From the NCBI GenBank assembly GCA_001794605.1, contig MGKD01000013.1:13463-77462 (forward strand): 64,000 nt of DNA, given 5' to 3'. The DNA comes from Candidatus Yanofskybacteria bacterium RIFCSPHIGHO2_12_FULL_45_19b (GTDB lineage: Bacteria > Patescibacteriota > Minisyncoccia > 2-02-FULL-40-12 > IGHO2-12-FULL-4). Positions 1-20,009 of the stretch are shown one piece after another; positions within the stretch are counted from its first letter, which is position 1; each line of letters opens with the position of its first letter. The translations under genes were made by a program, and so were the position numbers. The notes beneath the pieces were generated by a model, which saw only the letters and a list, made by a program, of their open reading frames with translations, did no database searches and was not told where the DNA came from.

Positions 1-1804
1 TGCTAGAACGACTGATTTGACGATTGATAGCAATACTTTTGATTATACTGGCTACGCTAATGGTAGTGGTTCGGAGGCAATTAGTGTGCGTTATGCTAGT
101 CATGTGGTGGTAACCAATAACATCCTGACTGGGTCGGCCAGCGCCACGACCTATGAGGCGGGTATTACATTAGCTTCGGTAAATTCTACTGGTGGTCAAA
201 GCGTAATTAGCGGAAACACGGTGGACGGTTTCAGTCGTGGTATCCGTATTCAGCGTTGGGCGTCTGGCGATGGTAATTCTGATGATATAGAGATAACCAA
301 CAACGCAGTAACCGATGGCGTTGTTCTGACGGGTAGTGAAAGTAGTACTGGTGTTGGCTTATTTCTTGCTGGTGTAACCAATCTTTTCGTGGATGAAAAT
401 ACTGTTACTGGTCATACTAATGCCGGTGTGTATATCCCAGCCACTGTTTCGGATGGCGGGGCTAACACCATCACCAATATGATAATTGGTGGTTCAACGG
501 CTAGCTTCAATGACTTTTCTAGCAATACCGACGGAATGGACAACTTCACAACCACAACTGCTAGTGCGCAATATAACTGGTGGGGAAGCTCGACTGGGCC
601 GAACCACTCGCCGGAAAATATTCCTGGAGTAGGCAGTTCTGTTTCTGATTATGTGGACTACAGCCCGTGGTGTACAAATAGTAGCTGTACAACTTTCGGT
701 TCCAGCGACCCGATAGATCATTTTGATATTGATCCGTCAGCTGGTTCGGCAATTGTCAATGTGTTGATTACCCTCACCGTAACCGCTAAAGATTCCGCGG
801 ACATTACTCGGGTTAATGATACCAGTGTAGTTTCGATGGCGGCTGACCATGGTGCATCATTGGGAACCCTACTCCTAACCTTGATAAGTGGGACCAGGGA
901 TACCACTGTGACAAATTCTGTGACGGGAACAGTTAATGTTTCTGGTATTAAAGTGGGCGGTTCAGCCACCGGCTCAACTTCTGTATCGTTTACCAGCAGT
1001 GATCCTGACGCGCCTACGATTATCAGCCACTCTCCAGCGGATGATGCAACCGATGTTGCCGTTACTACTGTGCCATACATTACCTTTTCCGAGGCACTCA
1101 AAGCCAGCACAGTTAACTCCACCAACATCCAACTAAAGAAATACAGCGACAACTCCAATGTTTCTGCCACGGTATCGTTAGTAGAAGGTGGCACCCGAGT
1201 CAACATTACGCCAGACAGCTCCTTGGCCAACAATACCCAATACTACTTTGCTGTTTCAACTAGCGTGCAGGATGAGGCCGGTAATGCTTTGGTGACCGCG
1301 CTGGATGTTGGTAGTAGAGATAGCCATGAATTCACCACTGTGGCCATTGAACCAGTGGTGGTGGACGAGATCGTGGCCGAGTCCAGCACTGCTACCGCCG
1401 ACGACACTTACATCAACGGCTGGCACTACATTTACCGCATCACTGTGAATACTGACGAAACCGATCTTTCGGTTAAGTTTACTGATTGGGATAACGCCGA
1501 CACGACGGACACCATCGCCGCCAATGGCAATATGCGAGTATTGTTCAATAGTGTTACCGCCAATGGGTTAGGTGCGGTGGTCGGTTTGACCGATTCTGAC
1601 ATTGAGGACGGTTTTGGTGATGTGGATTCATACGCAATTGGGAATGATTATACCGACCAATCTCCAAGCGTAATTGATATTTCCGGCCTGGATACTAGTA
1701 GTGTGCGTGATGGCCGGCAGGTTCAGTTTGATGTCTATACTAAACTGCCAGTAACCACTGTACCGGGTTTTTACACCACTACCTATGGTATTCAGGTTAA
1801 TTAA
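1..1804 (+). CDS. cell-surface protein, 5'-partial: parallel beta-helix-like repeats followed by Ig-like beta-sandwich domains
   Basis: Frame is open to the window edge, so the TTG at 17 is internal. N-terminal half has repeated NN..TG/GxxxxGIxI beta-helix-type repeats. C-terminal half is Thr/Ser/Val-rich Ig-like segments. Confidence 0.5.
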   Translation, partial: ARTTDLTIDSNTFDYTGYANGSGSEAISVRYASHVVVTNNILTGSASATTYEAGITLASVNSTGGQSVISGNTVDGFSRGIRIQRWASGDGNSDDIEITNNAVTDGVVLTGSESSTGVGLFLAGVTNLFVDENTVTGHTNAGVYIPATVSDGGANTITNMIIGGSTASFNDFSSNTDGMDNFTTTTASAQYNWWGSSTGPNHSPENIPGVGSSVSDYVDYSPWCTNSSCTTFGSSDPIDHFDIDPSAGSAIVNVLITLTVTAKDSADITRVNDTSVVSMAADHGASLGTLLLTLISGTRDTTVTNSVTGTVNVSGIKVGGSATGSTSVSFTSSDPDAPTIISHSPADDATDVAVTTVPYITFSEALKASTVNSTNIQLKKYSDNSNVSATVSLVEGGTRVNITPDSSLANNTQYYFAVSTSVQDEAGNALVTALDVGSRDSHEFTTVAIEPVVVDEIVAESSTATADDTYINGWHYIYRITVNTDETDLSVKFTDWDNADTTDTIAANGNMRVLFNSVTANGLGAVVGLTDSDIEDGFGDVDSYAIGNDYTDQSPSVIDISGLDTSSVRDGRQVQFDVYTKLPVTTVPGFYTTTYGIQVN

Positions 1805-1812
1805 CTTCATCC

Positions 1813-2469
1813 ATGACTAATAATAAAAAAATTAATTTCTGGGTGATCTTACTACTACTGTTGGCCTGGCCGGTTAGTGCTTCGGAGGTCACCGGTGGAC
1901 TTAGTAATCAGGGAGTAGTGCCAATCCTCCCTAGTGGAGTAGTCGCCACCAAGACTGGTGATCAACAAATCACCATCAGTTGGAATGCGGTGGTCGGCGT
2001 AGATGGTTATCGGATTTATCAAAAAAAAGACAGTGCTGATTTTCAGCTGTTGGTTGATAATCTGACCAACCTCCAGTATGTCAACTCAAGCTTAGCTAAT
2101 GGTAATTACAGTTATCGGGTGCAGTCATTTAAAGGGAGTTTAAGTCCGAGTGTAGATAATACTGCTCCTACCGCACCCATTACTATCAATTTTGTTGTTT
2201 CTACTCCGACTCCCACCCCAACACCGTCGGGTGGCGGTGGTGGAGGTGGCGGGGGGGGCGGCTCAGTATCTACACCCACTCCCACTCCCACAGGCACGCC
2301 TACATTGAATCAAGGTAATTCCAATGGGGACGGTAAAGTAGATGTGTTAGACTTCAATACCTTGGTTACTAATTGGGGAGCCACTGGTAGTGGTAATTCG
2401 GCAGACTTTAACAGTGATGGTACGGTTGATATTTTAGACTTCAACATCCTAATGAATAATTGGAGTTAA
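1813..2469 (+). CDS. secreted FN3-like domain protein with Pro/Thr-Gly11 linker and C-terminal type-I dockerin (two Ca-binding repeats)
   Basis: Signal peptide MTNNKKINFWVILLLLLAWPVSA. FN3-like ITISWNAVVGVDGYRIYQK. Dockerin repeats NGDGKVDVLDFNTLVTNW and NSDGTVDILDFNILMNNW. Confidence 0.75.
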   Translation: MTNNKKINFWVILLLLLAWPVSASEVTGGLSNQGVVPILPSGVVATKTGDQQITISWNAVVGVDGYRIYQKKDSADFQLLVDNLTNLQYVNSSLANGNYSYRVQSFKGSLSPSVDNTAPTAPITINFVVSTPTPTPTPSGGGGGGGGGGGSVSTPTPTPTGTPTLNQGNSNGDGKVDVLDFNTLVTNWGATGSGNSADFNSDGTVDILDFNILMNNWS

Positions 2470-2480
2470 TAAATCTAAAT

Positions 2481-3242
2481 ATGATGAAAAAAACTATTCT
2501 CGCAATTATTACTGTCGTTGGTTTTGGTCTATCCGCTGGGCCAGCGCTGGCCGCTACGCTTACGCTGTCGCCAACTAGTATTACCGTGAAGGCCGGGCAG
2601 TCTTTTACTGTAGCAGTTATGGTTGATCCACAAGGCGGGAAAGATTCAACTATCAAGACTGTACTGAGTTTCCCCGCTGATATGCTAAGTGTGCAGGCTT
2701 TCACGCAAAACACTGGCTGGTTGTCACTCACTCAACCTGGCTATGATCTAACAGATAATACCAATGGTAAGTTAGTTAAAACGGCTGGCTTCCCGGGTGG
2801 TATTACTAATACTACTACCTTCGGTACAGTGAACTTTTTGGCTAAAAAAAGTGGTAGTGCCAATATCCAAGTAACCGCTGAATCATTGGTTTATGACAAT
2901 ACCAATAAAAATGTTTTAGGATCGGTACTTGGCCAAACCGTGGTAACAATTAATCCGGCGGCTACTCCAACTCCGACCGTCACTAAAGCAGTTACACCAG
3001 CACCAACCAAGGTTGGTGGGCAGGTAACCGCTAGCCCGACGCCAACCGTATCGGAGGAGGCAGGCGTGTTAACCCCCACCCCCACTCCAGATACGCTAAG
3101 CGATAGTACTACGGCGCGTTTGGGTGCGGCGTTAACGCTGGGTACCAACAAGTGGCCAGTAGCAGTTTTGGTACTTGCCATTTTAGCTGGGTTGCTGGCT
3201 TGGTTAATCTGGGGCCTGCGCCGACGCAAAAACAACCTATAG
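2481..3242 (+). CDS. membrane-anchored cohesin-like domain protein (PT-rich linker, C-terminal TM helix and RRRKNN stop-transfer)
   Basis: ATG at 2481 with signal peptide MMKKTILAIITVVGFGLSAGPALA. Cohesin-like beta-sandwich pattern (ITVKAGQSFTVAVMV...LSFPADMLSV...GTVNFLAKKSGSANIQV). PTPTP linker. C-terminal hydrophobic helix followed by RRRK. Confidence 0.6.
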   Translation: MMKKTILAIITVVGFGLSAGPALAATLTLSPTSITVKAGQSFTVAVMVDPQGGKDSTIKTVLSFPADMLSVQAFTQNTGWLSLTQPGYDLTDNTNGKLVKTAGFPGGITNTTTFGTVNFLAKKSGSANIQVTAESLVYDNTNKNVLGSVLGQTVVTINPAATPTPTVTKAVTPAPTKVGGQVTASPTPTVSEEAGVLTPTPTPDTLSDSTTARLGAALTLGTNKWPVAVLVLAILAGLLAWLIWGLRRRKNNL

Positions 3243-3262: not shown

Positions 3263-3287
3263 AACCTTGAGGTTTAACCTCAGGGTT
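3263..3287. repeat. REP-like imperfect palindrome (degenerate copy of the RAYT-associated hairpin)
   Basis: aaccttgaggtt-t-aacctcagggtt; one mismatch in the stem. Same core as the 4694 and 5380 copies. Confidence 0.6.
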
Positions 3288-4693: not shown

Positions 4694-4722
4694 CCTACCT
4701 TGAGGTTTAACCTCAAGGTAGG
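4694..4722. repeat. REP hairpin (14-bp perfect stem, 1-nt loop) cctaccttgaggtt-t-aacctcaaggtagg; contains GTAG
   Basis: Read directly. The reverse complement of the left arm equals the right arm. Confidence 0.85.
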
Positions 4723-4734
4723 TATACTTCTGAT

Positions 4735-5394
4735 ATGGCTAATCGAAAAATTAGTTTTATCAACGATAACTATTATCATATTTATAACCGTGGTATTGAT
4801 AAGCGGATTATCTTTGAGAATGACCACGATTTTAAAAGATTTCAAGAAAGTCTACGGCTATTCAATTCTCCTAATAGTATCTGGCTAGCTGATGCTAACC
4901 AGAAAACTGAGGTTAAACCTCAAGACCGTCTGGTAGATATAGTGTGCTACTGTCTAATGCCCAATCATTTCCATCTTTTACTTAAGCAACGAGTTGATAG
5001 TGGTATCCCAAATTTCATGCGAAAATTGGGCACTGGGTATTCGTTATATTTTAATATGCGCAAAGAACGAAGTGGTAGTTTATTTCAAGGTACCTACAAA
5101 GCCAAGCTAGTGACAGATGATAATTACCTGACTCATCTTTCTAGATATATTCACATGAATCCGGTTGAGCTGGTAGATAGTAATTGGAAAGTGGCCGGTA
5201 TAAAAAACAAAAGAACGGCATTTGATTTTCTCGATAAGTTTCAGTGGTCAAGTTATCCTGATTTTATATCAGAAGTCAGTGGCAAGATAATTAGTAGAAG
5301 TATTTTGCATGAAATGTTTACGCCCAGTAGCTACAAGAAATTCATCGAGAGCTGGCTAATTAAAGATTTAGAGCAAATTGCCCAACTACCTTGA
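4735..5394 (+). CDS. REP-associated tyrosine transposase (IS200/IS605-like Y1 HUH transposase, RAYT)
   Basis: HUH motif MPNHFHLLL. Candidate catalytic Tyr in LFQGTYKA. C-terminal YIHMNPVELV...WSSY signature of the transposase IS200-like family. Confidence 0.75.
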   Translation: MANRKISFINDNYYHIYNRGIDKRIIFENDHDFKRFQESLRLFNSPNSIWLADANQKTEVKPQDRLVDIVCYCLMPNHFHLLLKQRVDSGIPNFMRKLGTGYSLYFNMRKERSGSLFQGTYKAKLVTDDNYLTHLSRYIHMNPVELVDSNWKVAGIKNKRTAFDFLDKFQWSSYPDFISEVSGKIISRSILHEMFTPSSYKKFIESWLIKDLEQIAQLP

Positions 5395-5418
5395 GGTTAA
5401 ACCTCAAGGTAGTTGGGC
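5380..5418. repeat. REP hairpin (19-bp perfect stem, 1-nt loop) gcccaactaccttgaggtt-a-aacctcaaggtagttgggc
   Basis: Read directly. Shares the ctaccttgaggtt core with the 4694 copy. Confidence 0.85.
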
Positions 5419-6104: not shown

Positions 6105-6133
6105 ATGGTTATTTGTTAAGTAAGGTCTTATCT

Positions 6134-6694
6134 ATGCAGGAAGATCTAGATTTAGCAAAAATCACCCTGGATGCTTTTCACTCGATTGTCTATTTATCTT
6201 TTCTCGTTAAAGACAGTGGTTTGCGTGAGCGGCTAATTGCTAGAGCGAAACCACTGCTAGATCGTCCGGGGCGATCGGAATTTGAGCGAGTTAAAATGCT
6301 AGAGCAAACCGTCGCTTGCCTCCTCGATTATTTGGAACTCCTGGTCTATCTAAAGTCTGCTCCGCTAGGGGGTTTGCTGGAGACCCAAAAACAGGTACTG
6401 AAATTAAAATTGATTATTGTTAGCAAGGAGAAGAATGCTCATCCTAAAAAAGTTTCTAAACCAGAAGAGGTTCAAATTGAAACTGAAAAAGGAAATGACC
6501 AAATTTTGGATGAAAAAATTATTGAACTAGTTAAGACCAGAGATGGTTGTAACTTTAAGGATATTTCTGGCGAGCTAGGTGGGGAGTATTCCAAACGGAC
6601 TTTGATCCGTTATATCAACAAACTATTGGCGCGCGGTTTAATCAAGAAAAAGCTGGGGCTGGATACGAGGTTTCCTAGCTATACGGTTGAGTGA
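6134..6694 (+). CDS. putative DNA-binding protein with C-terminal winged-helix HTH
   Basis: C-terminus NFKDISGELGGEYSKRTLIRYINKLLARGLIKKK is wHTH-like. N-terminus is alpha-helical. Start ambiguous between TTG 6113 and ATG 6134. Confidence 0.45.
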   Translation: MQEDLDLAKITLDAFHSIVYLSFLVKDSGLRERLIARAKPLLDRPGRSEFERVKMLEQTVACLLDYLELLVYLKSAPLGGLLETQKQVLKLKLIIVSKEKNAHPKKVSKPEEVQIETEKGNDQILDEKIIELVKTRDGCNFKDISGELGGEYSKRTLIRYINKLLARGLIKKKLGLDTRFPSYTVE

Positions 6695-6741
6695 TGGTGC
6701 CAGGCATGGTGCCAGCTAGCTGGCACCATGCCTGGCACCAT
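6694..6741. repeat. 48-bp perfect palindrome atggtgccaggcatggtgccagcta|gctggcaccatgcctggcaccat
   Basis: The reverse complement of the left half equals the right half. Begins at the stop codon of the wHTH gene. Confidence 0.9.
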
Positions 6742-6833
6742 GAAGTTGTGCTTATTTAAATAGGACATTCATGGTGCCAGCTAAATCTGTTGCTGAATCT
6801 GGCTTTACGCTTGGCACCATGCTTGGCACCATG
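6694..6833. promoter_or_regulatory. array of seven copies of the 10-mer core GGCACCATG/CATGGTGCC in both orientations (iteron/operator-like)
   Basis: Copies at 6694, 6705, 6720, 6732, 6770, 6811 and 6823. The last two are tandem ttggcaccatg. Confidence 0.5.
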
Positions 6834-7067
6834 AAGACCGTGTGGTTTTCATTTTTCTGACATAATTTTACGGTGCTATCCGTCAGCCACTGGATGGGGA
6901 AATATTGCCCCAAGAGTTTTTGTGAAAGATGAAAAAGTCTTAATTTAAGGCGGTTATCCACAATTGGCTATTGTCGGTGCGGGTGAATAAAATTATAATG
7001 GTTTTAACGGTTGTTAGTAATCCGTTTTGTTCCTTGTTGGTAAAGGATTCCTTATTTCTCTGATGGT

Positions 7068-7095: not shown

Positions 7096-7443
7096 CACCA
7101 GAGCGTCTAAGGACTATTATCAGTTAGTAAATGCGGGCTAAAAAGGTGCGTAAAAAGCCACTATTTACGAGCTTGTAATAGGAATCTATCCGAGGCGAGC
7201 TTGGACCTTGAAAACTCAATAAAACGGTTGCTATATATTGTAAGTAAAATAAGAGGTCAAACTAAGCAATAATAATGAGCTCCATCGCTCGTTCTAAATT
7301 TTTTTGCTCGGTCGATAAAACAGAGCGAATTCCCTTTTTGAGGGTGAGGAACAAGTGAGTGGTGGTTCAATAAGTTAAACCGTTCTGGCTAGTTGGGTGG
7401 TCGCAAGACAAACCAAATTTATCCAGAACACAAATATCAATCT

Positions 7444-10400
7444 ATGAGTCAATTATCAACAAAAGGAACGAGAGCGGTTTTAATCAAAACTGCCTCAGTT
7501 CTCACAGGTGTAGCGACAATATTGTCGTTATCCGGAATCCTGGCTTTTGCCCCAGTGGCAGGTGCCGTGGCTCCGTCCAACTTCGGATTGACTGAGGGCA
7601 ACACGATCAGTGCTGCTGGCTCCGAAGATCCGGATGTCTATATCATTAATGATGCGGGCTACAAGAGATTGTTCTTGAACCCGGCAATCTTTGGCTTCTA
7701 TGGTCACCTCGGTGGCTTTGCCAACATTAAAAATGTTACCCCAGCGACTCGCGATGCCTTCGTAACTTCTGGTCTGTTCCGCAACTGCGAAACCAATGAC
7801 GAAAAAGTTTATGGCGTTGAGACTACTGGTGAGGACACCGGTATGTTGCACTGGGTAAATACTTCTGGTGCGCAGGCCGTTGCAGATGACCCAAATTTCT
7901 TCTTGAAAGTTTTCTGCATCAACAATAATGAGTTCAACTGGTATGCTAAGGGTACAAACTACACCTCAGTAAATCAGGTCCCGAACTATTCCAGAACTCC
8001 TGGTGTTACTCCAACCCCAACCCCATTGGCGGGTTCAGTGAGTGTCAGTCTAGCTCCGAACAATCCAGCCGCTTCTACTACTACGACTAACGCTCAAGGA
8101 GTGGAATACTTGCGAGTGCGTTTGAGTGGTAGTGGTACGGTTAACTCCGTAACGGTCAAGCGCACTGGCGCTGGTTCAGTAGATGACTTTGATAATATTT
8201 ACCTTTACGATGGCGCGCGTCGTCTCGTGACTGGTAAGTCATTGACTTCATCCACTGGCGAGGCAACTTTCAGCAACCTAAGCATTGCAGTGAATGGCTC
8301 TAAAGATATTTCAGTAGTAGCCGATCTTTCTGCTACCGCTGGTAATGTCAACGCCTTCAGCTTAAATGCTCTAAGTCTGACTTCTGGTTCGGTCAGTGGC
8401 CTACCAGTAGGCGGTAATAATCTTTCCGTTTCTGGTGCTACCTCCGGTACCATTACTATGACCAAGGTTGGTTCAATAGGTGATCCAAATGCAGGTCAGC
8501 AGGATGTACAGTTGTCTGAATTTAAGCTGTCGGCTAATACTGAAGCGGCTTCAGTCAGACGCATTCAGATGTTACAGGGCGGTACAGTTAATACCTCTGG
8601 TATCACTGATCTTAAATTGAAGACTGGTTCCAGTGAATGGTCAGGGACTATTGATAGCGCTGGCTATGTTGTCTTCGACCTTGGTTCCGGATTCAGTATT
8701 GTCAAGGGTGGCAATGCCGTCTTTAAGGTTTATGGTGATATTGCTGGCAAGAAAGACGAAACCATTAAGCTCTACTTTGAGTACGCTACTGACATTTTGG
8801 CAGTAGGCGATCAGTATGGCTATGGTATGGCTGTTACTAGTACTACTATGGACGCGGTAAGTGAGGCACATGCCCTTACCCTACAGGGTGGTGTATTAAC
8901 GCTTACCTCTTCTGGTTTAGTGGCATCGGATATCGGTACTGATACCGATGATACGGTCTTCCTACGTTATTCGATCGCTGCAGCCAGTAATGTTGAGATT
9001 CGTAAACATCGTTTAGTTATCAGTAGCGACAAGGGTGGTGATGGCACGTTTGACGATTTCGTCGTTGCGACCAGCACCAGTTTCGCTGATCTCGATGATA
9101 TCAAGGTAATTAATGAAGCTAACGGAGCGGTTCTAATCGGACCGGTTGATGGTAGTTCCTTTGATGAAGTTGGTACTGCAAATAACAGTGCCGGCGGCGC
9201 GGTGGAAGGGGCAATGAACACCTTTAGTGATGTCATTGATCTCTCCGCTGGCCAGACCTTGAGTCTGAAGGTTACCGCCGACGTGAAGACTGGCAACACA
9301 CGCACTGGTTCTGCACTCGTAGCTGGTTCTAAAGTAGCAATCGGTGTCCAGGATTACTCTGATAATGTTGGAGTAACCGAATTGAAATATACTGGCACCA
9401 ACACAGCTTTAGCGGCTGCGGACATTGTGCCAAATGCTAACATTCATGGTCCAACTATGACTTTGACCGCTTCCAGCTTAACTTTAAGCTTGGCCTCTAA
9501 CCCAGCCGACCAGACAGTCGTGCAAGGTAGCCAGAATGTTGATAGCGTTGGTATTATCTTCCAGGCTTCGAATGCTTCTGCCTTGAAAGTAACGAATATT
9601 ACCGTTACCGGTTACTCCGATGCGAATGGCGCCGATGCCTTCGATAAGGGCAGTGCGGGCGATATTGGTTCAATCGTGTCAGCTGTGTCGTTGGTGGAAA
9701 AAGAGAGTGGAACAGTTTTATCCTCTACTCCTTCTGCTAATAACCTGGCGGCTTCTGCCGGTACGATCGTCTTCAATAACCTAAACTGGAACATTCCAGC
9801 GGGTGCGAGTCGGACGCTTATTGTTAGAACTAATCTTCTAAACTTAACTCCGCCGACCAAGGACGAATTTGGCTTCGATATTGCGGCCACGACTGACGTG
9901 ACTGCCATCGACGATTCAAACACCACGGTTAATGCTGGTAATGCCACTCCAAACGGTGCCACCAGTATTACGACTGAAGTAGAGGTAGTCAGTGCTGGTA
10001 ATATCTTTGTTACCGAGTATTTATCCTCGCCTTCTAAAGACAAGCAGGCTATCTACTGGGGTCAGACCGGTGTAGCAGTTTCTACCTTCAATGTCCGTGC
10101 GGCGAAGGAGGGCTTCTACATTGACCGGTTCAACATAGTATCGGCTGATACAGCTGATGCCAAGAATAATGTTGCCGGCGTCTATCTGGAGTATCAGGAC
10201 AAGGCTGGTTCAACTCTTACTGCCGGTCCGTACTCCTTAAGTGGTAGTGTTGCGTCTGTGTCATTTGGTTTCAGTGGTGCAACTCGGCCATATATTCCAA
10301 AAGATCAGTCGCGTCAAGTTGTTGTGAAAATTGATACCATTGGTACTCATCTAGCTGGTGCGACCTCGGCAGTTGACTTTGCGATGAACTTCTCGGGTGG

Positions 10401-11046
10401 TGCTGCGGACGAATTCGAAGCTACCGGCGAGGGTTCATTTGCCAAGGTGCTCGGCAATGATACTACTGGTGACGATACCGATAGTGTAACTGTGTCCAAT
10501 AAGAACATGGTCTATCGTTCGTTCCCGAAGTTTACTAATATCGTCTTGGCTGATGGTGCTGCTAGTGCCAACGCAGTGGTAGGCAAGTTTACCATCACTG
10601 CTATGGGCTACGATGTGCTCTTCAATACGATTAACGTTGCTTCTGGTACGATTACCTTTGACACGGTGGCATCTGGTCAGACGGCTCCAGCCGATCCGAT
10701 GATCACACTGTATGATGATACTACTGGCCTAGTTTATTCTAGTGCTTCGTATGATATCGATACCGTTAATGCTTCTTTGAGCTTCTCGGAATTCCTGAAT
10801 GCCTTAAACATTCCGGCCGGTACCTCAAAGACATTGCGCGTCCAGGGTAACCTAACCGCCTTCAATCGCGCGACTAACACCACCAGTGGTGTGGCCGCTG
10901 ATCACTTTATGCTCGTCCTGCAGGATGAAGCTAATGTGATTAAGTGGGTTGACAGTGCGGGCGTCGATGCCAATCTTGACCAGGCTAATACGGCAGGTTA
11001 TATCAAGAACCTTCCGTTCAATGGACCGAACATGACTGGTCAGTAG
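7444..11046 (+). CDS. giant secreted cell-surface (S-layer-like) protein with multiple Ig-like/beta-sandwich repeats
   Basis: ATG at 7444 gives signal peptide MSQLSTKGTRAVLIKTASVLTGVATILSLSGILAFAPVAGA. Roughly 1200 aa, rich in T/S/G/V/A. N-terminal ~115-aa domain is paralogous to the C-terminus of the 54399-55340 protein. Confidence 0.65.
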   Translation: MSQLSTKGTRAVLIKTASVLTGVATILSLSGILAFAPVAGAVAPSNFGLTEGNTISAAGSEDPDVYIINDAGYKRLFLNPAIFGFYGHLGGFANIKNVTPATRDAFVTSGLFRNCETNDEKVYGVETTGEDTGMLHWVNTSGAQAVADDPNFFLKVFCINNNEFNWYAKGTNYTSVNQVPNYSRTPGVTPTPTPLAGSVSVSLAPNNPAASTTTTNAQGVEYLRVRLSGSGTVNSVTVKRTGAGSVDDFDNIYLYDGARRLVTGKSLTSSTGEATFSNLSIAVNGSKDISVVADLSATAGNVNAFSLNALSLTSGSVSGLPVGGNNLSVSGATSGTITMTKVGSIGDPNAGQQDVQLSEFKLSANTEAASVRRIQMLQGGTVNTSGITDLKLKTGSSEWSGTIDSAGYVVFDLGSGFSIVKGGNAVFKVYGDIAGKKDETIKLYFEYATDILAVGDQYGYGMAVTSTTMDAVSEAHALTLQGGVLTLTSSGLVASDIGTDTDDTVFLRYSIAAASNVEIRKHRLVISSDKGGDGTFDDFVVATSTSFADLDDIKVINEANGAVLIGPVDGSSFDEVGTANNSAGGAVEGAMNTFSDVIDLSAGQTLSLKVTADVKTGNTRTGSALVAGSKVAIGVQDYSDNVGVTELKYTGTNTALAAADIVPNANIHGPTMTLTASSLTLSLASNPADQTVVQGSQNVDSVGIIFQASNASALKVTNITVTGYSDANGADAFDKGSAGDIGSIVSAVSLVEKESGTVLSSTPSANNLAASAGTIVFNNLNWNIPAGASRTLIVRTNLLNLTPPTKDEFGFDIAATTDVTAIDDSNTTVNAGNATPNGATSITTEVEVVSAGNIFVTEYLSSPSKDKQAIYWGQTGVAVSTFNVRAAKEGFYIDRFNIVSADTADAKNNVAGVYLEYQDKAGSTLTAGPYSLSGSVASVSFGFSGATRPYIPKDQSRQVVVKIDTIGTHLAGATSAVDFAMNFSGGAADEFEATGEGSFAKVLGNDTTGDDTDSVTVSNKNMVYRSFPKFTNIVLADGAASANAVVGKFTITAMGYDVLFNTINVASGTITFDTVASGQTAPADPMITLYDDTTGLVYSSASYDIDTVNASLSFSEFLNALNIPAGTSKTLRVQGNLTAFNRATNTTSGVAADHFMLVLQDEANVIKWVDSAGVDANLDQANTAGYIKNLPFNGPNMTGQ

Positions 11047-11116: not shown

Positions 11117-11155
11117 TTGGTTGAAAACGGATTAGAATTAATCTATGATAAGAAA

Positions 11156-12988
11156 ATGTTTGGTATTTCAAGAGAAAAACTCGGAATGATCGGCCTGCTA
11201 GTTTTAGTAGGCGCGATTATTTATAGCTTCAATTTACATAACCAATTATTTTGGGATGATGCTGACTGGATTGTAAATAACCCCACTGTCCACGCTCTCG
11301 GTTGGGATAATATTAAGTTTTGGTTTTCTCATAATACCTTGGCTGGTATTGGTATGCAGAGTAATTACTATCGCCCCTTTTTATTTTTTACCTTTGCTAT
11401 TAATTATGTAATTTCTGGAGTTAATCCGTTCTCCTACCACCTATTTAGTAATGTTATTCACATTATTAACGGACTGCTAATTTTTCTCCTCTTCTCTAAT
11501 GTTATTAAAAATAAACTGGTTGGATTTATTGCCGCGCTACTCTTTTTAGTGCACCCGATTGCTACTGAGGCGGTTACCTATATTGCTGGTCGGGGCGATC
11601 CACTCTATGTATTTTTTACACTTCTAGGACTCTGGCTTTTTTACAGCGCCGAGAGTAAAAAACTGGGTTGGCCCGGTGTTACAACTTCCAGTAGTGGTCT
11701 GATCGCTGGAAAGAAAAATCTGGAAGTTGTAACACCGGGTTGGCTTAGTTGGCAAAAAATCGTCTCTTTAGTGGTCCTAGTTTTAGGTCTTTTGAGCCGA
11801 GAGGTAGCTATTGTTTTTCCTCTGCTAGCCCTTATTTTTTCGATAGCCTTCTTGGAGACGGGGACTTTTATTCGTTCAATCCTCAATTCGCTAAAAAGAA
11901 CCTGGCCTTACTTTGGAGTGGTTTTTGTTTATGGCATTCTACGTCTCACTCTGCTTAACTTTAACAATACCCTAAACTTTTATACTACTCCCAATATCTA
12001 CTCAGAGAACTTGCCCGTGCGCCTATTTACTTTTATGCACGCTTTGTTTGATTACTTTGGAATACTGTTTGTACCGATCAAATTACACATGGAGCGAAGC
12101 GTACCGATTCACCTCTCGCCGTTCGATTGGCCAGTCTGGGCGGTGATTCTACTGTCAGCCGGTGCTATCTATGGATTGTATCGTTTGTATAAAAAGGATC
12201 GCGGGGAGAGGACTTTCCGATTCTGGTTCTTTGTTTTTGGCTGGTTCTTTGTCGCTTTGGGGCCGGTGTCCGGGATTACGCCGATCAATGCCCAGATCTA
12301 TGAACATTGGCTCTACCTTCCCGCCGTCGCAATTTTCTTGGCAGTTGGTTATGGTTTTAGTTGGTTGTTGAATTTTTTGTCCACCAATCGTAAAGGGCTC
12401 CGACGTTTGATGGTTGGGACGTTTGCGCTATATATTGGTTGGCTTTCTTATCAGTCTATCCAGCGTAATATTGTTTGGGGCAAGCCGATTGAATTTTATC
12501 AAGATATTTTAACCTACGAACCGGATAGTGTGCGGATAAATAATAATCTGGGCAATCGGTATTATGATGAAGGCAATATTGATCGGGCTGAATATTACTA
12601 TCAACGTGCGGTGGAGAGTGAAGATATCTTTCCCCAGCCGCACTATAATCTGGGCACCATTTTACAGGCCAGGGGCGATAACCATGGTGCGATAGAGGAG
12701 TATAAAAAGGCACTTTTGATAAATCCTTATTTCCACTATCCCTACCAAAATTTAGCCCACCTCTATGCCCAGCAAGGGGATTTAGTTAAAGCCAGAGAAT
12801 TACTCGAGCAATTAGAAAAAATACGCCCTAACGATCCAGTAACCTACTACTCTTTGGCGGCGGTGCACCAGGCACAGGGTAACTATGTGCAGGCCAGGGC
12901 TTATGCTGAAAAGGGCCTACTCTATGCCCCTCCGAACAGTAAGGTGAGGCAGGCACTAGAGGAGATATTGACCCAGCTAAATAAGTAA
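11156..12988 (+). CDS. TMTC-like polytopic membrane protein with C-terminal TPR repeats (GT-C-type protein O-mannosyltransferase-like)
   Basis: N-terminal multi-TM region with H..N.LLF..N and ALLFLVHPIATEAVTYIAGR motifs. C-terminal TPRs (NNLGNRYYDEGNIDRAEYYYQRAVE...). Confidence 0.6.
   Translation: MFGISREKLGMIGLLVLVGAIIYSFNLHNQLFWDDADWIVNNPTVHALGWDNIKFWFSHNTLAGIGMQSNYYRPFLFFTFAINYVISGVNPFSYHLFSNVIHIINGLLIFLLFSNVIKNKLVGFIAALLFLVHPIATEAVTYIAGRGDPLYVFFTLLGLWLFYSAESKKLGWPGVTTSSSGLIAGKKNLEVVTPGWLSWQKIVSLVVLVLGLLSREVAIVFPLLALIFSIAFLETGTFIRSILNSLKRTWPYFGVVFVYGILRLTLLNFNNTLNFYTTPNIYSENLPVRLFTFMHALFDYFGILFVPIKLHMERSVPIHLSPFDWPVWAVILLSAGAIYGLYRLYKKDRGERTFRFWFFVFGWFFVALGPVSGITPINAQIYEHWLYLPAVAIFLAVGYGFSWLLNFLSTNRKGLRRLMVGTFALYIGWLSYQSIQRNIVWGKPIEFYQDILTYEPDSVRINNNLGNRYYDEGNIDRAEYYYQRAVESEDIFPQPHYNLGTILQARGDNHGAIEEYKKALLINPYFHYPYQNLAHLYAQQGDLVKARELLEQLEKIRPNDPVTYYSLAAVHQAQGNYVQARAYAEKGLLYAPPNSKVRQALEEILTQLNK
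11673..11744. mobile_element. MITE-like in-frame 72-bp insertion: 20-bp perfect inverted repeats flanked by 8-bp direct repeat GGGTTGGC
   Basis: IR arms cccggtgttacaacttccag (11672-11691) and ctggaagttgtaacaccggg (11720-11739). Direct repeats at 11665-11672 and 11737-11744. 72 bp = 24 codons, and the reading frame is kept. Confidence 0.55.
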
Positions 12989-13003
12989 CTAGAATAAGAG
13001 AAT

Positions 13004-13492
13004 ATGAATAAAAAGATAATGCTGGGAATTATAGTAGTGCTAGCACTGACAGGGGTTGGCCTTTTTGTCTATCAGCAGGGTAGCTCTGATCCCCAAATCA
13101 GTCCCACCGCTACCCCACCAGAGGGCGTACCGACCGGAATCAGTAATGTTCGCCCAGAGTGTCAATTGAGTGGCAGAATCGTTTTTATTGCTGATAAGCT
13201 AACGCGCAGTGATGGGGCCAGTTTCGTATACCAGGGGGTGATGGATTCGCATGATACTCTCAATTGGTCAATCAATCCAGCAGAGGATGTGAGGGTTGGT
13301 CCTAATCGTTTTTCCGCGATACCATTGCCGAATGGTAAGGAAACCCCAACCATCGCTTTTAACCAAGGGAAACCCAGTCTTACTACTTATAAACTAAGTG
13401 CCTCGATTGATTACCCTTACGTGGTAAATAATAAGGTAGAGGTGCTTAATCAAAAGTGTACTGGTACGATTGAAGTAAAGATTGCTTATTAA
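13004..13492 (+). CDS. hypothetical N-terminally membrane-anchored/secreted protein
   Basis: Single N-terminal hydrophobic helix. No recognisable domain. Confidence 0.4.
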   Translation: MNKKIMLGIIVVLALTGVGLFVYQQGSSDPQISPTATPPEGVPTGISNVRPECQLSGRIVFIADKLTRSDGASFVYQGVMDSHDTLNWSINPAEDVRVGPNRFSAIPLPNGKETPTIAFNQGKPSLTTYKLSASIDYPYVVNNKVEVLNQKCTGTIEVKIAY

Positions 13493-13494
13493 TT

Positions 13495-15150
13495 ATGAGT
13501 TGGGTGCGCTACTTGCAAAGACATCAGCTATTTTCAATAATGCTGGTGTCTTTAGTTTTGTCCTTTATAATTTTTGGCAATGGTATAAAAGGAGGCTTTG
13601 TCTTAGATGACACTGTGGTGGTGGAAAAACGAGGAGAGCTTAGAAAGCTGGAGAATTTTTTTACGCTGTTTATCTCACCTTATCATCAGAATGCTCCCTA
13701 TACCGGGCTATTTAGGCCAGTGACTATGGCTTCGTATGCCTTAAATTTCGCGCTACTTGGTCGTGGCCCGAGTGGTTTCCATTTGGTCAATATTATTTTG
13801 CATGCGCTTAATGTCGTTTTAGTGTTTGTGGTTACGCATAAATTGCTAAAGCATAAAAGACCGGCTATTTTTGCGGCACTGTTGTTTTTGGCGCATCCTT
13901 TACATGTTGAGGCGGTTACCTCGATCGTTGGTAGGGCTGAGTTGTTGGCTTTTTTAGGGAGCTTGTTGGCAATTATTTTTGCTTTAGAGCGTCGTTGGTG
14001 GTGGATGATTTTGGCGTTTTTCTTGGCGATTCTAAGCAAGGAAAGCGCCTTAGCGGTCTTGCCAATAATTCTCTACTTATGGCGTTGGCAACAAGGGCAA
14101 AGCTGGTCCTGGCTAGTTAAGAATAGTTCTCGCTTTTTGTTAGCCCTTGCCCCATATTTTTTGTTGCGCTACCTAGCGCTTGGCCAGTACTTATTTAAGT
14201 CTGGCTCCGTTAGTTTTGTGGAAAATCCTTTAAAATTTATGGATCTAGGAGAGCGTATTGCTAATGCTCTAATGGTATTCTGGCTTTATTTAACTAAATT
14301 ATTTTGGCCGGTTAAACTTTCGGCGGACTATTCTTACAACAGTATTCCCCTGGTGAAAAACTTGTTAACTTCTTGGCAGGCTAGTGTTGGTTTGGTTTTG
14401 TTGCTAGGCCTGATTGGCTTGCTGGTTTTTAAAAGAAAGGTTGGTTATGGCCAAGCGGCCGGAATTTTTGTTTTCCCTTATTTGGTTGTTGCCAATTTAT
14501 TTTTTCCAGTTGGTACGATTATGGGGGAGCGTCTGCTGTATCTACCCTCACTAGGAGTTATTATAATGGTGGCTTGGTTGCTGGAGCAAGGGTTATCTAA
14601 ATTATCTACCCGGCGCTATCAAAAATTTTTTTACGGTGGATTGGCAGTTGTTTTGTTAGTTTTAAGTTACCTAACTATCCAGCGTAATCAAGTCTGGCAA
14701 TCAAACGCGAGCTTGTTGAGTGCGGTTTCACAAGTTAATCCGAATAGCGTCATTGCTCAGACTGGGTTGGCAGCCATTGCCTTAACTAAAGATGACTTAA
14801 CTGAAACAACTAAAAGATTGGCGATTGCTAATACTATTTATCCAGGCTATGCTCCACTGCAGAATCTGCAAGGTATTGTCGCAGTTAAGACCGGAAATTT
14901 GGTGGCGGCCGAAAAGCATTACCTACGGGCAGTTGAACTGAATCCTCGTTCACTAAACGCTTACAACAACCTAGTCAGTCTTTATCTTTCCCAAAAAAAC
15001 TATACGCGGGCGGCACAGTACTTAGAAAAGGTAATTCAACTCAGTCCCACGCAAGAACAGGTAACACGTTATGGCCAGGTTTTATTAATGCTCGGTCGTA
15101 GTGAAGAGGCGGCTAGAATGATTGACTGGGCCAAAAAAATGGTAAAATAA
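13495..15150 (+). CDS. TMTC-like polytopic membrane protein with C-terminal TPR repeats (paralog of 11156-12988)
   Basis: Shares H..N..LH..N and AALLFLAHPLHVEAVTSIVGR motifs with the upstream paralog. C-terminal TPRs. Confidence 0.6.
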   Translation: MSWVRYLQRHQLFSIMLVSLVLSFIIFGNGIKGGFVLDDTVVVEKRGELRKLENFFTLFISPYHQNAPYTGLFRPVTMASYALNFALLGRGPSGFHLVNIILHALNVVLVFVVTHKLLKHKRPAIFAALLFLAHPLHVEAVTSIVGRAELLAFLGSLLAIIFALERRWWWMILAFFLAILSKESALAVLPIILYLWRWQQGQSWSWLVKNSSRFLLALAPYFLLRYLALGQYLFKSGSVSFVENPLKFMDLGERIANALMVFWLYLTKLFWPVKLSADYSYNSIPLVKNLLTSWQASVGLVLLLGLIGLLVFKRKVGYGQAAGIFVFPYLVVANLFFPVGTIMGERLLYLPSLGVIIMVAWLLEQGLSKLSTRRYQKFFYGGLAVVLLVLSYLTIQRNQVWQSNASLLSAVSQVNPNSVIAQTGLAAIALTKDDLTETTKRLAIANTIYPGYAPLQNLQGIVAVKTGNLVAAEKHYLRAVELNPRSLNAYNNLVSLYLSQKNYTRAAQYLEKVIQLSPTQEQVTRYGQVLLMLGRSEEAARMIDWAKKMVK

Positions 15151-17953: not shown

Positions 17954-19088
17954 ACTGGCGAGTCATCTGTTCTTGGGTGAAGTGCTTGATAATATTTTGG
18001 TGAGCGGCGATGGCCAAGTCTTGACGCAATCGATCAGAAGCCAAAACCGTTTCGATATTACGAGCCAAACGGTTGGGGTTTCTAATCGCTACCACCAAAC
18101 CATTTTCTCCAGAATTAATTAGTTCAGGAATTGCTCCCACCGCCGTCGCTACCACCGGGACCTGGGCGGCCATGGCTTCGAGTACTGACCAGGGAAACCC
18201 TTCTTTGTTTGAGGGCAGGACAAATACATCAAAGGCTTTAAGATAACGTTGGGCCTCGGTTATTTTACCAAGCAAGAAAACTCGCTTCTCTTGACGCAGT
18301 GTTTTAATCAAGCGCTCTAGTTCTGGTCTTAGCCTACCATCGCCGATGATCAAAAAAATTGCCTCTGGGTTAGTAATCTGGGCGGCGGCGCGGATAAAAT
18401 TAGCCGTGTCCTTGGCTGGATAGAAGTTGCCGATCGTGCCAACCACTAAATCAGTTGGCGGGTTGGCCTTTCCAATTTTACTAAATAGTTTTTCTCTCGC
18501 CTCACTGCGTGGTATGAATTCCAAATAGGGATCAATGCCGTTAGGTATGTAAATCAACTCTTTGCGCGGCTTGATGCCTAGTTGTTCAGCTAACTGTCGG
18601 TCGTTTTGGTTGTTAACCACGATGATATCTTTCCAACGAGCACTCAATTTCTCTAAAAGAATATAGAATTTTTTTCGCCAGTAAGACCAGGGGTCATTAA
18701 AAGTCCAACCACCGATGCGGTAAATTACCTTGAGCCAGGGCAGGCGACGTGGCCAACGGGCGGCCAGTGCGCCAATAAAACCAGCTTTGGTGCCATTTAA
18801 AAACAGGACATCTGGCTGGAAGTCTTTAATTAGGGCGCGCAATTCTGATACAGCGCGCAAATTAGCTTGCCAATTACCGTCACGTTGCAAATAGGTTAGT
18901 TGCTGGGTGGCAACCGCTTTTGCTTTCAGTGCCGAATTCAAGCCAGCATCGCCCTCGCTACCAATTGCCACTAAGCACTGAAAGCGATTTTCAGCTAGTT
19001 TGGGGACGAAATTATTAAAAAATTGCTGGGCGCCACCGAGCTCAGATTGAGTGACTACAAAGAGAATTCTGCGCTGTTTTCTAATCAA
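17928..19088 (-). CDS. glycosyltransferase family 4 (GT-B); 5' end abuts/overlaps the IS left inverted repeat
   Basis: EGFPWSVLEAMAAQVPVVATAVGAIPELI motif. No in-frame ATG; only the TTG inside the IS inverted repeat. Confidence 0.8.
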   Translation of the reverse strand: MIRKQRRILFVVTQSELGGAQQFFNNFVPKLAENRFQCLVAIGSEGDAGLNSALKAKAVATQQLTYLQRDGNWQANLRAVSELRALIKDFQPDVLFLNGTKAGFIGALAARWPRRLPWLKVIYRIGGWTFNDPWSYWRKKFYILLEKLSARWKDIIVVNNQNDRQLAEQLGIKPRKELIYIPNGIDPYLEFIPRSEAREKLFSKIGKANPPTDLVVGTIGNFYPAKDTANFIRAAAQITNPEAIFLIIGDGRLRPELERLIKTLRQEKRVFLLGKITEAQRYLKAFDVFVLPSNKEGFPWSVLEAMAAQVPVVATAVGAIPELINSGENGLVVAIRNPNRLARNIETVLASDRLRQDLAIAAHQNIIKHFTQEQMTRQFTRLLDEG

Positions 19089-20009
19089 TAGCTTGGAACC
19101 GCTTTAATGATTTCCATCGGGGTTTTAAAGTTTAATCCCATGTGTGGCCGCTCTGTATTGTAGTATTGAATAAACTCTGGTATTTCTTTTTGCCATGCCT
19201 CCATAGTTCTTGGTATCCGATGCAGACACTCTTTTTGTAGGGTTTGAATGAATCTTTCCACATGAGCATTGTCAGTTGGTGTTCGTACTCGGGTGTGCCG
19301 ATGTTCTAAACCATCATGGATGGTAATCTTGGTAAACCATTTAGCAAACTCCGAGCCATGATCCGTCTGGATGGTCTTGAACGAGAACGGAGCTTGCTCC
19401 CGTGCCGTCCGCATGAAACTGCTGGTGGCTCGACAATTCACCGCCAGCGCTGGTTCCGCATAGGCCCAGCGGGAGCAGACATCAATCAAGGCATAGGCGG
19501 ATAACCTTTCTGCTGGTATCCCCTCATGTACAGCATCAATTTCCACTAACCAGCCTGGTTTTTCTGGCATGGGCCGTTCCGGATACTGGTGCCACTTCTT
19601 CCATTTGGAATACTTTGATATACCATATCTTTTTAGTATTCGTTTGACCGTACTCAGACTGACTACAATATTTCTTTCTGTGCCCAGTCGGTGATGCAGA
19701 ATCTCGGCACACTGACTCCGTTCGCTTCTTAACTCGAGAATCTGTTTCACAATCTCAAGATCAATCTCATTGGGGTGATGGTCTGGTCGTGATGATCGGG
19801 TGGGCAAGAACTGACTGTTGTGGTGCAAGAGCTTGGCTCGTGCTACCCATTTCACCACGGCACTATGGGTAAAGCCAAAGTGCCGTGCCACCGCTCTAAC
19901 ACTCCATCCGGACTGGACTAACCGTACCGCTTCCATCCTGATCCGAGGCAATCGATTGTATATGCTGTACATTCTCATATTCTAGCAGGGGTGGTTCCAA
20001 GGTATTGAA
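19084..20009 (-). mobile_element. IS481-family-like insertion sequence copy 1 (about 926 bp) with 19-bp imperfect terminal IRs
   Basis: IR-L atcaatagcttggaaccgc (19084-19102) pairs with IR-R gtggttccaaggtattgaa (19991-20009) at 16/19. Contains the transposase ORF. Confidence 0.6.
19085..19978 (-). CDS. IS481-family DDE transposase (rve integrase core)
   Basis: N-terminal HTH. WLVEIDAVH, TDHGSEF and DNAHVERF (DDE) motifs. Confidence 0.8.
   Translation of the reverse strand: MRMYSIYNRLPRIRMEAVRLVQSGWSVRAVARHFGFTHSAVVKWVARAKLLHHNSQFLPTRSSRPDHHPNEIDLEIVKQILELRSERSQCAEILHHRLGTERNIVVSLSTVKRILKRYGISKYSKWKKWHQYPERPMPEKPGWLVEIDAVHEGIPAERLSAYALIDVCSRWAYAEPALAVNCRATSSFMRTAREQAPFSFKTIQTDHGSEFAKWFTKITIHDGLEHRHTRVRTPTDNAHVERFIQTLQKECLHRIPRTMEAWQKEIPEFIQYYNTERPHMGLNFKTPMEIIKAVPSY

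Follow-up and report, generated by a model that had tools for sequence, protein, structure and literature searches.

The 64,000-nucleotide stretch of the Candidatus Yanofskybacteria bacterium RIFCSPHIGHO2_12_FULL_45_19b genome considered here (contig MGKD01000013.1, positions 13,463 to 77,462; the whole stretch is called the window below) contains two adjacent genes, one encoding a secreted protein that ends in a dockerin (gene 1) and the other a cohesin with a predicted membrane anchor (gene 2). The operon to which they appear to belong is, with good though incomplete confidence, a dedicated non-cellulosomal cohesin-dockerin tether of Patescibacteria (the candidate phyla radiation, CPR). The conserved pair, which usually lies behind the gene of a giant surface protein, probably tethers large surface proteins to the cell. 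An earlier reading made from the sequence alone (the sequence-only reading) had described the two genes as a minimal, scaffoldin-free surface display pair for an FN3 (fibronectin type III) cargo. The partnership of the two modules is supported by a gene adjacency conserved in at least 93% of related loci and by covariation on the canonical binding face, whereas "minimal" and "cargo" both require revision.

Loci with relatives of gene 2 were assembled, 80 from species-representative genomes and 80 from metagenomes, and every open reading frame (ORF) in them was scanned with hidden Markov models (HMMs) built from each of the two modules. Of the loci having upstream sequence, 68 of 72 from genomes and 56 of 62 from metagenomes (124 of 134 in total) place an ORF with a terminal dockerin right next to the cohesin gene in the same orientation, with a median gap of 4 nt, and the dockerin always lies 0-6 residues from the C-terminus of its protein. 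The count rises to about 131 once the exceptions are inspected: one is an ORF-calling artefact (L036), three retain frameshifted dockerin remnants (L038, L139 and L140), three from metagenomes have a gene of ~160 aa between the dockerin and cohesin genes (L118 4331-4813, L151 5404-5880 and L159 5414-5893), and only L041, L066 and L137 are truly without a dockerin. Dockerin ORFs are otherwise scarce, as the 960 kb of genome loci contain only 75, of which 68 are the adjacent one; judged from these sequences, the gene pairing is beyond chance. Because the genes flanking the module (tRNA synthetases, ribosomal proteins, transporters) vary from locus to locus, the module itself is the conserved unit. 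Nearly all of the loci are assigned to Patescibacteria, among them Jorgensen-, Wolfe-, Nealson-, Nomura- and Yanofskybacteria, with others from Taylor-, Doudna-, Magasanik- and Berkelbacteria, Kazan and Paceibacterota.

In the window, the genes of the unit and the parts of their products are laid out as follows.

17..1804, + strand: 3' part of the gene of a giant, predicted secreted surface protein (last 595 aa); its 5' part lies beyond the window start.
1337..1801, + strand: "GCT" domain of the GWHY subtype, ~150 aa, C-terminal in the giant protein; no Pfam family or match in the Protein Data Bank (PDB).
1813..2469, + strand: gene 1, a predicted secreted FN3-linker-dockerin protein of 218 aa with an ATG start.
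1930..2187, + strand: FN3 domain, gene 1 aa 40-125, from an AlphaFold2 (AF2) model with a predicted local distance difference test score (pLDDT) >90 and from Foldseek.
2188..2313, + strand: flexible linker, gene 1 aa 126-167, from sequence and low pLDDT.
2314..2466, + strand: dockerin, gene 1 aa 168-218, C-terminal, from Pfam Dockerin_1 and AF2 helices.
2481..3242, + strand: gene 2, 253 aa, with a signal peptide, a single cohesin, a Pro/Thr-rich (PT) stalk and a predicted C-terminal transmembrane (TM) anchor.
2553..2960, + strand: cohesin module, gene 2 aa 25-160, a 9-strand beta-sandwich.
2961..3140, + strand: Pro/Thr-rich disordered stalk, gene 2 aa 161-220, pLDDT 42-62, varying in length and composition among homologs.
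3117..3149, + strand: juxtamembrane motif RLGAALTLGTN, gene 2 aa 213-223, from the family alignment.
3153..3230, + strand: predicted TM helix W225-L246 followed by an RRRK stop-transfer, C-terminal in gene 2, from sequence, AF2 and family conservation.
3264..3286, no strand assigned: palindrome resembling a repetitive extragenic palindromic (REP) element, 22 nt past the cohesin stop codon, one of a 3-copy family.

The stop codon of the giant gene is separated from gene 1 by 8 nt, and gene 1 from gene 2 by 11 nt; promoter-like and terminator-like matches around the genes are no more frequent than in shuffled sequences. These two observations together suggest that the giant gene, gene 1 and gene 2 form an operon, of which the palindrome at 3264-3286 may be the terminal hairpin.

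Gene 1 conforms to its first description. Its N-terminus is a hydrophobic, Sec-type signal-like segment by inspection, and the domain that had been called FN3-like (aa 40-125) is modelled as a beta-sandwich with pLDDT >90; Pfam fn3 reaches only a sub-threshold 16.6 bits, and FN3 domains account for all 50 of the PDB matches listed by Foldseek (best 3mpc_A, E 4e-6). The linker that follows, composed of PTPTPTPS and SVSTPTPTPT with 11 Gly in a row between them, is predicted to be disordered (pLDDT <50 at aa 142-163), and a Gly-run/PT linker is kept among gene 1 homologs. Both dockerin repeats that had been quoted are present with the full ligand pattern, and Dockerin_1 (PF00404) matches aa 171-215 above its gathering cutoff (30.0 bits against 22.9, E 6e-7) over profile positions 5-54 of 57; most homologs have a precomputed PF00404 match as well. 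The module consists of two 21-aa repeats (N169-G189 and D198-S218; 12 of 21 positions identical), each a calcium-type loop followed by a helix (178-186 and 207-215, both with pLDDT >90), with ligands at loop positions 1/3/5/9/12 supplied by N169/N171/D173/D177/D180 in the first repeat and D198/N200/D202/D206/D209 in the second. The ligand positions have low entropy in 128 homologs. Among homologs F181, W188, G189, D198, D209, F210 and W217 are invariant; a subfamily signature, D-F-N-x-L-M-x-N-W, occurs in both helices, and the linker between the repeats is 8 residues long. The C-terminus of gene 1 is thus, by its sequence features, a bona fide type I dockerin for which Ca2+-dependent folding and binding are predicted.

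Directly after the predicted signal-peptide cleavage site of gene 1, at window positions 1879-1914 (aa 23-34), is a motif, ASE[VI]TGxL[ST]..G, that is common to small dockerin proteins with N-terminal domains of differing class (FN3 and CHB_HEX_C-like). The product of the ~160-aa gene inserted in L118, L151 and L159 shows a C-terminus of its own, ...DYTALT.EY.PL...HLRITTP....

Gene 2 likewise occupies its proposed place on the + strand. The mechanically called ORF opens earlier, at TTG 2460, and ATG 2481 is preferred as the start because homologs begin MKK.... The proposed layout is found in order: a signal-like N-terminus, a beta-sandwich, a PT-rich linker, a hydrophobic helix and RRRK. AF2 models aa 25-160 mostly with pLDDT >90 as the nine-stranded flattened beta-sandwich (jelly-roll) of cohesins and places a helix at 225-252; the hydrophobic segment and its basic tail are kept throughout the family. 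Immediately before the TM helix the family shares a juxtamembrane consensus, LLAxVGxxxxLGT[NDG]S, with G221 conserved in at least 90%.

The description of this domain as cohesin-like stands on its fold and on its family, but not on any profile match of gene 2 itself. With gene 2 alone, a Pfam search returns no cohesin at E<=1, NCBIfam returns 0 families at E<=1 (neither cohesin nor sorting signal), and a comparison with PDB sequences returns nothing; a family profile compared with the PDB yields only a Big_2-like first strand, common to phage lambda gpV and uninformative. At the family level, PF00963 is matched at E<=0.01 by 42 of 63 aligned homologs (best E 6.1e-10), these 63, from 65 homologs found, being 35-94% identical to gene 2; one homolog already carries the NCBI name "cohesin domain-containing protein". 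The top-ranking fold matches of the gene 2 model are exclusively cohesins. The sequence-only reading had been prepared to give way if neither cohesin nor dockerin were matched by an HMM; half of this is the case, in that gene 2 has no Pfam cohesin match, and it is set aside because fold and family evidence both say cohesin. By fold and family, gene 2 aa 25-160 is a bona fide cohesin. A CLIPPER/DUF11 isopeptide stalk was considered as another identity for the beta-sandwich and rejected, the DUF11-match/tandem-repeat hallmark being absent. The cohesin-TM family is large, comprising 587 clusters (50% identity) at E<=1e-30 among 1.84 billion representatives. Of the best 150 matches, most have a length of ~225-290 aa and cover the profile almost from end to end.

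The two modules vary together at the surfaces by which cohesins and dockerins are expected to meet. In 128 non-redundant syntenic pairs (effective number, Neff, 88), covariation was scored as mutual information between cohesin and dockerin columns with average product correction (APC). It is strongest between cohesin T57/I58 (beta3) and Y138/D139/N142/N144 (beta8 and its loop) on one side and dockerin N182/N211 on the other, which occupy the same helix position (14) in either repeat; the next strongest signal is at position 18 (T186/N215). Seven of the top 10 cohesin columns fall in beta3 and beta8, which make up 19 of the 144 columns (hypergeometric p = 2e-5). Dockerins have D-F-N in both repeats in 114 pairs and D-F-V in both in 11, plus one A/V; a mixed N/V state never occurs, and D-F-V dockerins go with cohesins carrying A/V57, E58, F138, S142 and S/T144. 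Mean entropy is 1.02 on strands 8-3-6-5 and 1.45 on the opposite sheet (p = 0.0015), and nearly invariant are strand beta5 (K100-T-A-G-x-P-x-G107) and the loop that precedes it (G87-Y-D-x-x-D-N-x-x-G96). Covariation and conservation both suggest the canonical cohesin-dockerin geometry with binding at the 8-3-6-5 face, strands being matched by order, and the joint switching of both repeats suggests a symmetric, dual-mode dockerin. In the genomes with two pairs (L022/L023 and L042/L082), the two pairs share one specificity type, with no pair-level orthogonality; specificity therefore appears to be set at the level of the lineage and not of the pair.

A 311-aa protein of Candidatus Daviesbacteria (P0117) has in a single chain, starting from the N-terminus, a TM segment, then a PQ/PT linker, a beta-rich region, a further linker and a C-terminal dockerin. 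The beta-rich region resembles the cohesin module by eye only; if it is a cohesin, the protein may polymerise with itself or fold back.

The conserved unit usually has a third member upstream, and "minimal" is not supported as a description of the pair. The window ORF at 17-1804 covers the C-terminal 595 aa of a protein whose full length, 1,382 aa, is seen in L004; L004, L005 and L006 encode a cohesin protein identical to gene 2, in the same gene order, with a full-length giant. The giant has an N-terminal hydrophobic signal/anchor segment, and Pfam finds in it only Big_5 (window ORF aa 329-441, E 5e-20). At loci with enough upstream sequence, a large upstream ORF (same strand, 500 aa or longer, with its end no more than 150 nt away) accompanies a small dockerin protein in 53 of 74 cases, compared with 4 of 88 at a downstream control position; where the dockerin protein is itself a giant, there is such an ORF in none of five loci. 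Dockerin proteins of >800 aa occur at 12 non-redundant loci. In other genomes proteins of 837-1,463 aa carry the dockerin directly, following a Gly/PT linker in the giant dockerin proteins examined. Their cargo includes LTD and beta-helix/NosD arrays and an S8 subtilase with immunoglobulin (Ig) domains, and one giant beta-helix protein ends in Gly5-FN3-dockerin. The subtilase (L019 319-4548; 1,409 aa, with a fervidolysin-like prodomain and Ig arrays) likewise ends in this dockerin, and its gene immediately precedes a cohesin-TM gene, so the anchor could display an enzyme too.

The GCT domain at the end of the window's giant (1337-1801) belongs to no Pfam family and matches no PDB sequence. Within the locus set it recurs in 31 ORFs, of which 26 lie directly upstream of a dockerin gene, and never in a dockerin protein; a word-indexed homolog search with the domain retrieves only 4 fragments. 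Two subtypes can be told apart, GWHY (GCT-A) and NGWKW...VTVPT.ET (GCT-B). When small dockerin proteins are classed by motifs of their N-terminal domains (BLAST clustering merged the classes through linkers and signal peptides), FN3 goes with GCT-A in 4 of 4 cases and CHB_HEX_C-like domains go with GCT-B in 7 of 9, and PHQFFG-type small proteins go with a GCT domain in 0 of 33. A second, divergent cohesin was considered for the GCT domain and rejected, as hhalign gives a probability of 1.3% and neither Pfam nor the PDB offers a match. Because an upstream giant gene is usual, because giants elsewhere bear the dockerin themselves, and because the class of the small N-terminal domain tracks the class of the GCT domain, an adaptor or accessory role is likelier for the FN3-dockerin protein than the cargo role it was first given. 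An adaptor between giant and anchor is, on this genomic evidence, a tentative proposal that is at best evenly balanced.

In the mechanism proposed, the Sec machinery would export the gene 2 product, whose C-terminal TM helix would keep it in the cytoplasmic membrane with RRRK on the cytoplasmic side, and whose ~60-residue Pro/Thr stalk would raise the single cohesin across the wall zone. The partner encoded immediately upstream would be secreted with the two-repeat Ca2+-type dockerin at its end, and this dockerin would bind the cohesin on its 8-3-6-5 face by a non-covalent, Ca2+-dependent contact; the dockerin's internal symmetry would permit two binding orientations. A giant could be attached directly, through a fused dockerin, as would be the case for many relatives (beta-helix, protease and Ig-array proteins), or via a small one-domain dockerin protein, as would apply to the FN3 protein of the window and to most loci. 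In the latter case the assembly would have three parts, namely the giant (held through its C-terminal domain), an Ig/FN3-dockerin adaptor and the cohesin-TM anchor, and the adhesin-like giant would thereby be exposed at the cell surface. It is conceivable, though rather doubtful as a whole, that this is a phylum-wide three-part machine that recognises the giant through its GCT domain by means of adaptors of matched class, employs lineage-specific DFN or DFV dockerins, and mounts the largest surface proteins of these ultra-small, wall-bearing episymbionts for contact with a host.

Several observations weigh against the tether, in addition to the failure of gene 2 alone to match a cohesin profile or a PDB sequence. 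The covariation amounts to approximately one bipartition (114 NN against 12 VV/AV), and only 1-4 switches from N to V are inferred (Fitch 4 on a neighbour-joining tree that is poorly resolved), so that co-inheritance is not fully separable from co-adaptation; the cohesin strand numbers on which the binding face is drawn were mapped to the canonical cohesin by strand order and not by residue-level structural alignment. Physical binding, its Ca2+ dependence and the membrane topology are predictions. With respect to the third component, the giant's own N-terminal hydrophobic segment may anchor it independently, a large upstream ORF is missing from about 28% of small-dockerin loci, and the evidence for an adaptor consists of synteny and a correlation of domain classes only, which vertical inheritance of the operon would also produce. 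The first two of these points on the third component favour an alternative in which the system has just two proteins, the FN3-dockerin being the cargo (for example a glycan-binding or host-binding protein) and the giant being co-transcribed but physically independent; some dockerin proteins are indeed tiny (110-165 aa), with little beyond linker and dockerin. This arrangement is nevertheless unlikely for the window, given the strong enrichment of large upstream ORFs, the restriction of the GCT domain to the ORF upstream of the dockerin gene, the N-terminal domain classes that follow the giant's C-terminal domain class, the giants of other genomes that bear a dockerin themselves, and the absence of a recognisable activity in a lone FN3.

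It is very improbable that the two modules are not mutual partners at all, the dockerin being a generic EF-hand-like Ca2+ module or one that binds elsewhere (to a host cell or another cohesin), the cohesin-fold domain a generic Ig-like surface or stalk domain comparable to CLIPPER/DUF11 and pilin-like folds, and their adjacency a matter of co-regulated envelope proteins. A different anchoring mode for the tether, in which the C-terminus of gene 2 is a tripartite sorting signal cleaved by a sortase-like enzyme and the cohesin becomes covalently bound to the wall as in ScaE, finds some encouragement in the conserved pre-helix motif and in a motif-hydrophobic-basic layout like that of sortase and exosortase signals. 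This too is quite improbable, since the juxtamembrane motif LGT[NDG]S is not LPXTG-like, no NCBIfam sorting-signal model matches it or gene 2 at E<=1, and no sortase gene occurs among the scanned genes of the window; it would alter the mode of anchoring only, not the pairing.

The system is not a cellulosome, because it has one cohesin, no carbohydrate-binding module (CBM) and no glycoside hydrolase. As the sequence-only reading had noted, no glycoside hydrolase is nearby, at least among the genes scanned at 1-44.5 kb (the scan did not extend to 44.5-64 kb); likewise the 64 kb have a single cohesin ORF, no multi-cohesin scaffoldin and no CBM, and the window's one dockerin ORF has FN3 as its only other domain. 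Neither here nor in any related locus does a protein have more than one cohesin domain. Comparable single-cohesin anchors are OlpA and OlpC of Clostridium thermocellum, which have a type I cohesin and a surface-layer homology (SLH) region, and ScaE of Ruminococcus flavefaciens, a sortase-anchored cohesin that holds ScaB and the dockerin-bearing adhesion protein CttA; Rincon et al. are said to have described, in R. flavefaciens, a dockerin-bearing non-enzymatic adhesion protein encoded beside an anchor gene. As in these systems, a single cell-bound cohesin here would take the C-terminal dockerin of a secreted protein, and the cohesin folds match, with the OlpA/OlpC structures 3ul4 and 4dh2 among the fold matches of gene 2. 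In contrast to them, the anchor in this patescibacterium is a TM helix instead of SLH or LPXTG, no scaffoldin, CBM or glycoside hydrolase is present among the scanned genes, there is approximately one dockerin gene per anchor gene, fixed in an operon, and a small one-domain dockerin protein is often interposed.

Cohesins and dockerins outside cellulosomes were reportedly surveyed by Peer et al. in 2009 (FEMS Microbiol Lett 291:1). Of the non-cellulosomal cohesin structures, 2xdh is from Archaeoglobus fulgidus, and 2vo8, 2jh2 and 2w1n are from glycoside hydrolases of Clostridium perfringens. The C. perfringens cohesins assemble toxin/glycosidase complexes and the function of the A. fulgidus cohesin is unknown, whereas the window pair is a proposed tether. 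The dockerin itself resembles canonical type I dockerins (C. thermocellum Xyn10B and Cel48S) in its duplicated Ca-loop and helix, its ligands at 1/3/5/9/12 and a symmetry that would allow a dual binding mode, but differs in the short 8-residue linker between repeats and in ending 0-6 residues past the second helix; its positions 10-11 are hydrophobic (V/I-L), where canonical type I dockerins have Ser-Thr. A full-text literature search, which did not cover Peer et al. 2009, returned no account of an operon of a dockerin gene and a TM-cohesin gene or of its spread in Patescibacteria, and the tether is a variant of non-cellulosomal cohesin-dockerin anchoring for which no earlier description was found. 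"Dockerin-type" giant proteins have been reported from Omnitrophota (bioRxiv 10.1101/2023.11.21.568195; PMC10066038), and SEML1_0315 is an essential dockerin protein of Southlakia epibionticum (PMC10633639). There, too, large surface proteins of host-dependent nanobacteria bear dockerins, which are read as adhesion-related, but the reports name no cohesin partner, and the Omnitrophota giants have many internal dockerin repeats where the proteins described here have one at the C-terminus. A link to SEML1_0315 was rejected, as no cohesin gene adjoins it.

The remainder of the window has several features of its own. A palindrome of 21-27 nt, CCTTGAGGTTWAACCTCAAGG, of which 0 copies are expected by chance, is present three times (3264-3286, 4695-4721 and 5386-5412), with a partial copy at 4907-4924; two of the copies flank a Y1_Tnp/IS200-like gene (4735-5394; Pfam 35 bits), which is an arrangement like that of REP elements and REP-associated tyrosine transposases (RAYT) in a CPR genome. 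Just downstream of a helix-turn-helix-like (HTH) gene (6113-6694), direct and inverted repeats of TGGCACCATGC[CT]TGGCACCATG occupy 6694-6836 and include a perfect palindrome of 24+24 nt (6694-6741). A second large orphan surface protein, predicted to be secreted, 1,217 aa long, rich in Ig-like-looking repeats and with no Pfam or NCBIfam match, is encoded at 7393-11046, about 4 kb past the anchor gene. It is followed at 11117-15150 by two membrane proteins with tetratricopeptide repeats (TPR), one of which has a TMTC/DUF1736 (protein O-mannosyltransferase-like) region; these could glycosylate the Pro/Thr-rich linkers of surface proteins. A large surface-glycan locus (17928-44505) contains many glycosyltransferases of families GT1, GT2 and GT4, methyltransferases, a B12-radical S-adenosylmethionine (SAM) enzyme, a Wzm/Wzt-type ABC exporter, a HisF/HisH-like pair and a nonulosonic-acid pathway (NeuB, UDP-GlcNAc 2-epimerase and cytidylyltransferase), and is interrupted on the minus strand by an rve-family integrase gene (19085-19978).

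Patescibacteria account for a large share of uncultivated bacterial diversity, and little is known of how they mount their surface proteins, some of which are very large. Those in cultivation live attached to host cells (PMC10633639). The operon offers a concrete and biochemically testable hypothesis, as both modules are small, soluble and expressible in E. coli, and the natural DFN/DFV switch with its matching changes in beta3 and beta8 constitutes a ready mutational test; the two types may also prove a source of new orthogonal cohesin-dockerin pairs for protein engineers. The GCT domain, as yet uncharacterised, is a candidate for a new protein-protein interaction module. What goes beyond ordinary annotation is the combination of a phylum-wide operon-encoded tether, a probable third component with a novel domain, and a natural specificity switch. 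If the tether operates as proposed, cohesin-dockerin biology would reach past polysaccharide degradation into general envelope architecture.

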